Below, one piece after another: positions 231 to 5,066 of a stretch of DNA of 5,066 bases. The stretch lies in the IMG/VR virus record IMGVR_UViG_3300045988_041365, one strand, 5' to 3'. The translations under genes were made by a program, and so were the position numbers. Under the pieces are notes generated by a model that had not been told where the DNA came from, did no database searches, and saw only the letters and a list, made by a program, of their open reading frames with translations. Within the stretch, counting starts at the first letter, position 1. Every line of letters starts with the position of its first letter. The DNA is from a virus.

Positions 231-254
231 ATAGGGGGGCAACTGCCCCCCTAT
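231..254 (-). terminator. Intercistronic stem-loop between the VP1 stop and the VP2 start; possible partial terminator or attenuator.
   Basis: A 9-bp perfect stem atagggggg / cccccctat with loop caactg sits 3 nt after the VP1 TAA. On the mRNA strand it is followed by UUUUG and then the VP2 SD. Confidence 0.4.
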
Positions 255-3944: not shown

Positions 3945-3949
3945 AACAT

Positions 3950-4070
3950 CACCTACTTTATTTATACTATATAGTATTTTTTATTTTTTTCAAGTATATA
4001 TTATATTTTTTATTATATTTTTTTTATTATTATACTAATCTATACTACTACAAGATAGGTATAGTTAGCG
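3950..4070 (-). promoter_or_regulatory. AT-rich putative promoter/operator region upstream of rep.
   Basis: About 85% A+T. On the mRNA strand TTGAAA lies at plus 3988..3993, followed 16-18 nt later by TATAGT/TAGTAT and then about 20 nt to the rep ATG. A 12-bp perfect palindrome TACTATATAGTA at 3965..3976 overlaps the -10 region. Three TATACTA copies lie at 3963, 4031 and 4041. The promoter assignment is inferential. Confidence 0.3.
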
Positions 4071-4090
4071 TGCTAATCTCCATCTTTGGT

Positions 4091-4154
4091 GTCACTCAGC
4101 ACAGTTACATCAAGAGAGTAACTGTGCTGAGTGACCGGCCGCGATACGCGGCCG
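4091..4154. repeat. Two adjacent stem-loops: an 18-bp perfect inverted repeat (4091..4108 / 4118..4135, loop 4109..4117) and an 8-bp all-GC hairpin (4136..4143 / 4147..4154, loop ata). Candidate replication-origin or primosome-assembly structures.
   Basis: gtcactcagcacagttac-atcaagaga-gtaactgtgctgagtgac is a perfect 18-bp stem. cggccgcg-ata-cgcggccg is an 8-bp GC stem. Both lie in the only sizeable non-coding region. Confidence 0.45.
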
Positions 4155-4195
4155 AGGTGATCAACGAAACTGCATACCATTTTGGCAAGGAGTGC

Positions 4196-4241
4196 AAAAA
4201 AGAAGCGGAGCTTGGCGCAGGGGCGCGACTCGCTTCGCTTC
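4196..4241 (-). terminator. Rho-independent terminator downstream of VP2, at the end of the polycistronic unit. It also reads as a hairpin plus T5 on the plus strand.
   Basis: The mRNA strand reads GAAGCG(aagc)GAG-tcGCGCccctGCGCcaag-CTCCGCTTC followed by TTTTTT, about 20 nt after the VP2 TAA. On the plus strand the same hairpin is followed by cctttttaaaaaag. Confidence 0.6.
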
Positions 4242-4259
4242 CTTTTTAAAAAAGAATTT

Positions 4260-5066
4260 TTACTTTTTGTAAAGACGGAACGTACCAGAAAAATCCTTGA
4301 AATACGTACGACCGTCAGAACCACGATACAAAACATCCTTATTACGACCAACACCAGAACCATATGCACCAGCAATAGGCGTAAAAGTCTTACGGCCTTG
4401 ATACTCACGATCATAACCAAAAGACCGACTACCAGACGAACCAGAAGACGAACCACCATAATTATTGTTGGTGGTAGTACCACCATTATAATTAAAAACA
4501 TCAGGCCGCCGAGCAGCAGCAGCGGCTACCATAGCAGCATCACGACCGGAAGCAATACCACGATCAGTAGCCATCTGGGCAACAGCAGTCGCAGCACGCT
4601 CAGCAATACCCGCCATATCAGACACAAAGCGTTTATCGCTGCCATAGCGAGAGGCTTCAGAAGACTTATCTGCACCATAGCGCGAGGCCTCAGCCTGAAT
4701 ATCGGCAACAATCCGAGACATAGCAGTATACTTGTCAGCGACAGCTTCCTGAGTACGAGCATTGATATTAGCGGCCTCAATCTGAGTATTGGCAGCAAGG
4801 ATAGAACCAAGCAAGTTTGCAATAGCACCGTTGGCAGACATATCAGTTTCACCTTTGGCACCTTGAGAGGTCACACCTTGAGCAGTTGCACCGGAACCGA
4901 CAGAAGCGCCGTTTCCATTCATAGCAGAAAGCACAGGGTTCAAACCAGCCGCCATCAAATCACGAACTTCACGCTGATGAGCAGTATTAGACATCATCGC
5001 CTGCCAGTTTCGATTATTAGCGGCCTCATTTTGATTAAACATCATCGCTTTAGCATTTTGCTGCTC
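4260..5066 (-). CDS. VP2: VP2 minor capsid / DNA pilot protein, C-terminal portion including the stop. It is truncated by the window edge and continues circularly into 1..212.
   Basis: The protein is Gly/Ser/Ala-rich, with a ...REVRDLMAAGLNPVLS... motif typical of gokushovirus VP2 and the C-terminal end ...GRTYFKDFSGTFRLYKK. The stop is a TAA at 4262..4260. It follows VP1 in the canonical order. An internal 33-nt imperfect tandem duplication encodes EASRYGADKSS / EASRYGSDKRF. Confidence 0.85.
   Translation of the reverse strand, partial: EQQNAKAMMFNQNEAANNRNWQAMMSNTAHQREVRDLMAAGLNPVLSAMNGNGASVGSGATAQGVTSQGAKGETDMSANGAIANLLGSILAANTQIEAANINARTQEAVADKYTAMSRIVADIQAEASRYGADKSSEASRYGSDKRFVSDMAGIAERAATAVAQMATDRGIASGRDAAMVAAAAARRPDVFNYNGGTTTNNNYGGSSSGSSGSRSFGYDREYQGRKTFTPIAGAYGSGVGRNKDVLYRGSDGRTYFKDFSGTFRLYKK
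4972..5066. repeat. Terminal redundancy: a 95-nt exact copy of positions 1..95. It marks linearisation of a circular 4,971-nt genome.
   Basis: Direct base-by-base comparison of the window start and end: cgctgatgagcagtattagacatcatcgcctgccagtttcg...ttgctgctc is identical at both ends. Confidence 0.95.

Follow-up and report, generated by a model that had tools for sequence, protein, structure and literature searches.

The window analysed here is the whole 5,066-nt stretch of IMG/VR virus record IMGVR_UViG_3300045988_041365, a gokushovirus genome in which every gene lies on the minus strand. A perfect 18-bp hairpin in its large intergenic region, together with a TGACACC box on the 3' side, is probably the viral-strand (+) rolling-circle origin, at which the phage initiator Rep (VP4) would nick the loop at CTTG^AT. 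This reading is supported by the prevalence of the element across the family, the covariation of its stem, the conservation of its loop, 3' arm and box, the match of the loop to the phiX174 origin, and the homology of Rep to the phiX174 initiator gpA. The nick is predicted by homology to fall between G (4111) and A (4110) of the minus strand, and the box is a putative Rep-binding "key" sequence. The features of the element are as follows.

4085-4135, minus strand: conserved element in full (hairpin and 3' box), putative viral-strand (+) origin
4118-4135, minus strand: 5' arm on the viral strand, GTCACTCAGCACAGTTAC, 18 nt
4109-4117, minus strand: loop TCTCTTGAT, 9 nt, with CTTGAT at 4114 to 4109
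4091-4108, minus strand: 3' arm GTAACTGTGCTGAGTGAC, conserved in sequence beyond pairing alone
4088-4094, minus strand: box TGACACC, in the stem base and 3' flank, 14 nt past CTTGAT
4136-4154, minus strand: companion GC hairpin, 8 bp with a 3-nt loop, directly adjoining the large hairpin

Structure of the two hairpins

The two 18-nt arms (4091-4108 and 4118-4135) are 100% complementary and separated by 9 nt, and the GC hairpin consists of CGGCCGCG (4136-4143), ATA and CGCGGCCG (4147-4154). The original prediction, made from the window alone, had placed both structures within 4091-4154, and its arms, loop and GC hairpin agree with the sequence to the base, including the 8-bp all-GC stem with a 3-nt loop directly after the large hairpin. 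It had also held that a perfect 18-bp repeat was improbable by chance, and this was borne out, since the longest perfect inverted repeat with a loop of 3-20 nt measured 6-11 bp in 100 shuffles of the window and never more. Folded as single-stranded DNA, the 81-nt stretch 4080-4160 had an energy of -34.9 kcal/mol versus -9.7 +/- 2.2 kcal/mol in shuffles (z = -11.7; equalled in 0 of 200). The length of the 8-bp GC stem is by itself unexceptional, as shuffles often reached 7-8 bp. The site AGTGACACC occurs once in the window, at the TGACACC box, and no Rfam family matched anywhere in the window at E <= 1. Two open reading frames (ORFs), 4070-4249 on the plus strand and 4073-4501 on the minus strand, cross the hairpins; a coding reading was rejected, as they matched no family and 1-nt indels occur among relatives.

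Similarity to the phiX174 origin and initiator

The viral-strand origin of phiX174, with the site CAACTTG^ATATTAATAACACTATAGACCAC, is a 30-nt gpA recognition and cleavage site. Positions 4299-4328 of NC_001422 read CAACTTGATATTAATAACACTATAGACCAC, with the rep_origin annotated at 4306, so that the phiX174 sequence given in the original prediction was correct, as was its observation that the loop shares CTTGAT with the origin core CTTG^AT on the coding strand. The heptamer ACTTGAT is present both in the common gokushovirus form, CTACTTGAT, and in the annotated phiX174 origin, CAACTTG^ATA, in each case on the coding strand. The commonest form, CTACTTGATGTAACTGTGCTAGGTGACACC, shares C-ACTTGAT with phiX174 at the cut site, and an ungapped comparison placed GAC at the same offset in the two sequences. 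Compared with CAACTTG^ATA, the window was identical at 6 of 10 positions (CTTGAT) and most relatives at 7 of 10 (ACTTGAT), or 8 of 10 counting the first C. A blastn search with the phiX174 origin matched only Bullavirinae.

The window Rep matched Pfam family PF23343 (4e-18) and PHROG 942 (7e-131) and contained the motifs FVTLTY, PHYHSII and YTARYVMKK. A profile of ten VP4 sequences aligned with phiX174 gpA in hhalign at a probability of 92% (E 5e-7), the alignment spanning FxTLT, EYG..RxHxH and the two-tyrosine motif YVA(R/K)YxxKK. By this profile comparison, VP4 is a homologue of phiX174 gpA and a two-tyrosine HUH initiator of the gpA lineage. No sequence relative of the window Rep family was found in PDB. 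The strongest argument for cleavage at CTTG^AT is the combination of a near-identical catalytic motif with a near-identical target heptamer, from which we infer that Rep would cut there.

The gokushovirus element resembles the phiX174 origin in having a homologous initiator, a coding-strand core of (A)CTTG^AT, and conserved sequence reaching about 25 nt 3' of the cut. It differs in being intergenic and in carrying the cut site in a hairpin loop, with the stem arm GTAACTGTGC in place of the phiX174 spacer. The AT-rich stretch lies just 3' of the element in gokushoviruses, whereas it directly follows the cut in phiX174, whose origin we take, from the literature of the 1980s, to be divided into recognition, spacer and key parts.

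Distribution of the element

A blastn search with positions 4070-4170 matched 388 Microviridae GenBank records, from pig, human, lemur and rodent guts, honey bees, Ciona, peat, methane-seep sediment and rivers; beyond the nearest relatives, only some 45 nt with the hairpin at their centre matched. A 15-mer from the hairpin was present in >100 IMG/VR microvirus genomes whose VP1 and Rep were 41-56% and 33-44% identical to those of the window, respectively. To avoid circularity, 80 IMG/VR contigs were picked by Rep homology alone, and a covariance model built from 17 hairpins detected the element in 76 of them. In the window itself the model placed the element at 4085-4135 on the minus strand (64.2 bits, E about 2e-16).

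Among cultured gokushoviruses, the element has stems quite unlike that of the window. The Chp2 version, upstream of rep, is CTAGCGTATAACAG-TCTACTTGAT-CTGTTATACGCTAG (covariance model E 7e-4), that of phiMH2K is AGTTCGGCTAC-GGACCCTACTTGTTGTAA-GTAGCCGAACT, and that of SpV4 is TGGGGCATAT-ATTACTTGTTATA-ATATGCCCCA, then TTGACGACA. The Chp1 version (L131 2750-2789, intergenic) is GGGCTATAT-CCTCTTGGCT-ATATAGCCC, then GAGCGACAC; this hairpin is not among the four "hairpin-like structures", h1-h4, of the Chp1 GenBank record. An Escherichia coli enterogokushovirus prophage has CCTGGCACAGT-GCCTTACTTGATGTA-ACTGTGCCAGG, then TGACACC, between VP3 and VP1, the stretch covering hairpin and box being CCTGGCACAGTGCCTTACTTGATGTAACTGTGCCAGGTGACACC. 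This prophage is in the chromosome of strain E9 near hipBA; the element lies at L203 4990-5090, away from the dif-bearing prophage ends, and an inverted copy of the box, GGTGTCA, is found about 50 nt downstream of it. The versions in the classic phages were recovered by a search for CTTGAT-type loops in hairpins; a search of these phages with the 15-mer at up to 3 mismatches yielded nothing real.

The element was also found in at least one pequenovirus. Its carriers include phages of Chlamydia, Bdellovibrio, Spiroplasma and E. coli as well as phages from gut, marine and peat sources, and the same motifs across unrelated hosts indicate that the element follows the phage Rep, not the host. When bacterial genomes were scanned with the 15-mer, chance matches dominated and 3 of 120 matches were real elements. 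Full elements were present in two bacterial bins, on a 20-kb contig of a Phascolarctobacterium metagenome-assembled genome (MAG; L214), which also carries gokushovirus VP1, VP2, VP3 and VP4, and on a 424-kb contig of an alphaproteobacterial MAG (L268); these could be prophages or binning carry-over. An 8.1-kb contig (L183) has two full elements, at 653-702 and 5119-5168, about 4.5 kb apart, and may be a concatemer or a more-than-unit-length assembly.

Covariation and conserved positions

The original prediction had proposed comparing the non-coding regions of related gokushoviruses, and for the large hairpin this comparison revealed a covarying stem and a loop motif that is near-invariant across the Gokushovirinae. 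MAFFT failed to align the 5' arms owing to the variable loop length, and a covariance-model alignment, which leans towards structure, was used. In this alignment of 67 rows, which is structure-fitted and contains two reverse-strand echo rows so that its figures are somewhat generous, 95.9% of stem cells formed Watson-Crick or G-T pairs, versus 72.7% in shuffles. Changes on both sides were seen in 11 of 12 stem pairs, compensatory cells numbered 157 versus 41 expected, and the covariation score was 0.534 versus 0.130, a value reached by 0 of 500 shuffles. Sliding the partners by 1-3 columns as a control lowered pairing to 18-42%. Only nine cells held G-T pairs, and this scarcity fits a structure formed at the DNA level.

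Independently of the model, genomes about 89% identical to the window retained a stem of 17-18 bp despite 4-6 double changes, with CTCAGCACA/TGTGCTGAG exchanged for GTGGGCACA/TGTGCCCAC or GTGGTTACA/TGTAACCAC; the 5' arm changed only together with the 3' arm. Across the family, stem length was 6-18 bp, usually 10-12 bp with a mode of 11-12, and loop length 8-18 nt. The window stem is thus the long extreme of its family, which, like the sequence conservation of the 3' arm and the downstream TGACACC box, had not been part of the original prediction.

Positions were counted in 70 distinct Rep-selected elements that remained after a pattern filter. The loop core, at the 3' end of the loop, was CT(T61/A9)G(A66/T4)T, and was followed in the 3' arm by G7 (65/70), T8 (70/70) and A10 (68/70). 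GT(A/T)A was retained in 21 of the 24 elements in which it is unpaired. The box was (A/G)(G/C)TGACAC(C), separated from CTTGAT by 14 nt in 55 elements and by 15 nt in 15, with T before GACA in 70/70, C after it in 67/70 and a further C in 60/70. The element therefore consists of a structure-constrained stem and sequence-specific positions in the 3' half of the loop and on the 3' side. A hairpin kept by compensatory changes and bearing a near-invariant loop motif is what is expected of a stem-loop origin served by an HUH Rep.

The window loop represents the TCTTGAT variant, present in about a third of elements. A CTAGAT variant was found in genomes (L158, L159, L160, L166, L174, L176, L185, L190 and L194) that are near-identical around the element to carriers of CTTGAT (e.g. 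L160 vs L161), indicating that position 3 of the motif tolerates a T/A change. A strict 6-mer test found an inverted second copy of the TGACAC box in 6 of 162 elements, and the idea that the box is a paired dimer-binding site was dropped for this reason. In eight genomes (L010, L062, L072, L075, L101, L105, L119 and L150), a TGACA(C/G) box pairs 3'-ward with a complementary copy, forming its own small hairpin, instead of with the 5' arm.

Genomic position and orientation of the module

Among 162 near-complete genomes, the next recognisable downstream gene on the motif strand was rep in 135 (median distance 197 nt) and VP1 in 16, which makes the element a self-contained module placed in whichever large non-coding region exists. 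The 100-nt flanks of 151 elements averaged 51% GC upstream and 40% downstream, with a genome mean of 44.5%, and the downstream flank was below the genome GC in 117 of the 151. The fork would first move into this AT-rich side, whose composition may facilitate unwinding or may reflect nothing more than the rep promoter.

The module, box included, was inverted relative to all genes in 10 genomes (L150, L175, L184, L186, L191, L193, L198, L039, L075 and L101), about 6%, representing at least five lineages (L150, L039, L075, L101 and the L175 group). Inverted modules still had the structural genes on one side and rep on the other. Since the box is outside the palindrome, a loop-flip assembly artefact cannot account for the inversion. 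An origin that defines the displaced and packaged strand can tolerate inversion, while a lone inverted complementary-strand origin would lose its function, and we therefore counted these inversions in favour of a strand-defining origin. On this basis the module might be a portable, orientation-defining origin cassette. In the inverted phages Rep would then nick the non-coding strand and antisense DNA would be packaged, making them negative-sense Microviridae, and by extension the hairpin origin would be ancestral and the hairpin-less intragenic origin of phiX174 derived. We offer this scenario tentatively and consider it on the doubtful side.

The companion GC hairpin

The 45 nt immediately 5' of the origin hairpin in 161 elements had a median folding energy of -7.8 kcal/mol, versus -3.1 kcal/mol in random windows of the same genomes, and energies of -5 kcal/mol or lower were found in 83% of these flanks versus 27% of random windows (Mann-Whitney p 1e-49). 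The sequence of the GC hairpin is unconserved across genomes, and most have a structural counterpart. Within lineages the small stem showed compensatory changes (CGGCT/AGCCG, CGGCC/GGCCG, CGGTC/GACCG, GCCCTCA/TGAGGGC and GACCTCA/TGAGGTC), and its loops, often GAA, GAAT(A) or GTAA, resemble those of the GNA mini-hairpins, which are unusually stable in DNA. The GC hairpin is therefore a genuine component of the module, under selection for its structure. No T-run follows it, and the terminator-like hairpin upstream is a separate structure.

The GC hairpin is probably a stable single-stranded DNA structure used on the packaged strand. A free sequence with a kept structure is compatible with recognition by a host factor, and the f1 intergenic region, with its hairpins in a comparable order, offers an analogy for a complementary-strand priming site, which is our best guess at the function, though one we consider less likely than not. 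The original prediction had proposed both hairpins as candidate origins; the large one was strengthened by its covariation and by the loop match to phiX174, while the GC hairpin as an origin is still a guess. In several genomes (L021, L033, L037, L055, L068, L081, L090 and similar), the small hairpin is nested in a long stem, where a three-way junction is predicted with GTCACCTA still paired with TAGGTGAC around both hairpins.

Genome layout of the window

Bases 1-94 of the window are identical to 4973-5066, and the genome is thus a circle of 4,972 nt. VP2 crosses the circle junction and starts at an ATG at 211 on the minus strand, and the listed 261-aa VP2 ORF is for this reason truncated at its N-terminus. 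The genes and remaining intergenic features are as follows.

5045-4260, minus strand: VP2, pilot protein
4196-4247, minus strand: terminator-like hairpin (inverted repeat) followed by T6, directly after the VP2 stop (4260)
3945-4084, minus strand: AT-rich spacer, about 28% GC, between the origin element and rep
3944-2976, minus strand: rep/VP4, HUH rolling-circle initiator, presumed nickase
2806-2411, minus strand: 131-aa ORF in the usual place of VP5, matching no Pfam or PHROG family
2421-1924, minus strand: VP3, scaffold protein
1934-258, minus strand: VP1, capsid protein

The sole large non-coding region, 3945-4259, separates the VP2 stop from the rep start and contains both hairpins. Read 5' to 3' on the coding strand, this region comprises the VP2 stop, the hairpin with T6 (4247-4196), a spacer of ~40 nt, the GC hairpin, the 18-bp hairpin, the ACC that completes the TGACACC box, 140 nt at 28% GC with a promoter-like site (TTGAAA-16-TATAGT, 3993 to 3966), and the rep ATG. 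The location of the element in a transcription-free gap between terminator and rep promoter was also counted in favour of the origin reading.

Folding of the intergenic region gave a stem at 4196-4247, then TTTTTTG on the minus strand; a simple terminator scan reported here only a plus-strand terminator-like site, 4220-4236. The terminator-like hairpin and T6 show no differences among all five related genomes from pig faeces. They belong to a block of ~85 nt at about 4160-4250 (minus strand), which comprises this hairpin and GCACTCCTTGCCAAAATGGTATGCAGT and otherwise differs at few positions among the five relatives. The block is kept even in MG945333, whose origin hairpin and GC hairpin differ from those of the window, and its conservation exceeds expectation for a plain terminator. 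Elsewhere in the genome, a 170-nt gap (2807-2975) follows rep ahead of the 131-aa ORF, and a perfect 10-bp hairpin at 231-254 (minus strand), ATAGGGGGGC-AGTT-GCCCCCCTAT, then TTTTG, lies directly after the VP1 stop, ahead of the ribosome-binding site of VP2, and resembles a terminator or attenuator separating the two genes.

Proposed mechanism and alternative functions

In the supercoiled double-stranded replicative form, the inverted repeat would extrude as a cruciform, or Rep bound at the box would melt the repeat, and the loop would thereby be exposed as single-stranded DNA. Rep would cut the coding strand at CTTG^AT (4111/4110) and remain attached to the 5' A, and the 3'-OH would prime synthesis towards the AT-rich flank and rep. 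After one round, the hairpin would re-form on the displaced strand and present the site again for cleavage and ligation, and the released circle would be packaged. The adjoining GC hairpin would act in the same module, its possible use in complementary-strand priming being a guess. In this scheme we infer the cruciform extrusion, the nick position and the binding of Rep at the box.

Several observations weigh against an origin of this kind. The predicted nick site derives from 6-7 nt of identity with phiX174 and from the homology of Rep, and the architecture of the phiX174 site differs, being intragenic (in gene A), devoid of an inverted repeat and provided with an AT-rich spacer. Four of the 80 Rep-selected contigs showed no element, and those of Chp1 and SpV4 were recognised by pattern alone, the covariance model missing both. 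The invariance of CTTGAT and GACA was partly imposed by the pattern filter, and the model-based alignment contained rare loop variants such as CTCGTT; G7, T8, the T before GACA and the C after it, which the filter did not touch, were equally constant. The TGACACC box is single, without iterons, and as a rule has no inverted partner nearby (6/162). Finally, a conserved structure on the packaged strand might just as well function in complementary-strand synthesis, or in both processes.

One alternative is that the large hairpin is a complementary-strand (minus) origin, recruiting host primase, RNA polymerase or PriA on the packaged strand coated with single-stranded DNA-binding protein, as at G4 oric, the phiX174 n' site and the f1 minus origin, a class of origins that also includes the plasmid sso. 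Such a role would fit the stable hairpins on the packaged strand within the main intergenic region and the covariation, which shows that structure matters, and cap-rep hairpins in other Microviridae clades have tentatively been read in this way (PMC9865509). We nevertheless consider it unlikely. Phages of unrelated hosts share the sequence of the loop, 3' arm and box, which is unexpected for sites of host factors, and the PriA/primosome alternative named in the original prediction is disfavoured for the large hairpin by a sequence shared among phages of Chlamydia, Bdellovibrio, Spiroplasma and E. coli. The loop moreover agrees with the site that gpA cleaves, conservation of GT(A/T)A extends to elements in which it is unpaired, and the module is inverted in several lineages although a lone inversion would abolish a minus origin. 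A dual role is possible, in which the large hairpin has a second, minus-strand function beside that of viral-strand origin.

A smaller likelihood still attaches to a purely regulatory element, such as a Rep operator, at which Rep or a host protein would bind the palindrome and box ahead of the rep promoter and control rep transcription, the origin being situated at another place, perhaps within rep as it is in phiX174. The usual place of the element, about 200 nt upstream of rep and beside a promoter-like site, would suit an operator, but 16 genomes and the E. coli prophage have it upstream of VP1, away from rep, and its loop is asymmetric, invariant and matched to a cleavage site. The window offers no second phiX-like site in a hairpin context, the other CTTGATGTAA (318-327) being on the non-coding strand inside VP1. 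That either hairpin is an intrinsic transcription terminator or attenuator is very improbable: the stems are GC-rich and downstream of structural genes, but neither is followed by a T-run on the coding strand, a separate hairpin with T6 stands 40-60 nt upstream (4247-4196), and the conserved loop sequence, few G-T pairs and inverted copies misfit an RNA terminator. A XerCD/dif-type recombination site or an attP for lysogeny can practically be dismissed, for although enterogokushoviruses have a dif-like site in a non-coding region (PMC7062461), the geometry here is 18-9-18 instead of 11-6-11 (28-bp motif), the E. coli prophage carries the element in its interior, between VP3 and VP1, and not at its ends, and the element occurs in almost all gokushoviruses whereas dif motifs are rare (PMC7062461).

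Comparison with other origins and significance

A viral-strand origin of the proposed form would resemble the nonanucleotide hairpins of circoviruses and geminiviruses and the double-strand origins of pT181-type plasmids in placing an invariant nick motif in the loop of a covarying hairpin. Like those HUH-Rep replicons, it lies next to rep with a Rep-binding-type sequence, here putative, nearby. Unlike them, it has another loop motif, another Rep lineage and a single box in place of iterons, and its loop of 8-18 nt has the motif fixed at the 3' end. The module also recalls the intergenic region of the Ff phages (f1/M13), which we take to consist of a terminator/packaging hairpin, minus-origin hairpins and a plus-origin hairpin: in both, a terminator, one or more small stable hairpins and a nick hairpin follow in the same order on the packaged strand. 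The initiators, unlike this layout, are unrelated in sequence, and the small gokushovirus hairpin is known here by structure alone.

Conserved cap-rep intergenic hairpins with compensatory substitutions were described in 2022 in reekeekee- and roodoodooviruses, where the authors left the function open, leaning to minus-strand initiation (PMC9865509). Those hairpins were not tied by the authors to a gpA cleavage motif, and we liken them to the present element by description, not by sequence. The eLife report on the E. coli phage EC6098 discusses only dif motifs (PMC7062461). Our literature search, which did not reach older papers including the genome papers of Chp2 and phiMH2K, found no account of the element or of a gokushovirus origin. 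Rolling-circle origins that an HUH Rep cuts in the loop of a hairpin are a well-known kind; what appears to be new is a phiX-type cleavage motif in such a loop, within an intergenic module common to almost all gokushoviruses.

Gokushoviruses are among the most abundant single-stranded DNA phages of gut, marine and soil viromes. The analysis points to a specific site of about 50 nt with a predicted cut position in nearly every one of them, and because the site is present in the culturable systems Chp2, phiMH2K and SpV4 and in the revivable E. coli phage EC6098, it is directly testable. If the reading is true, it would connect the origin of phiX174 with the stem-loop origins of other HUH replicons and would provide an annotation marker for the genome start and strand. 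It would also raise the possibility that the packaged strand can flip within one virus family, since under the nick model the phages with an inverted module would package the antisense strand.

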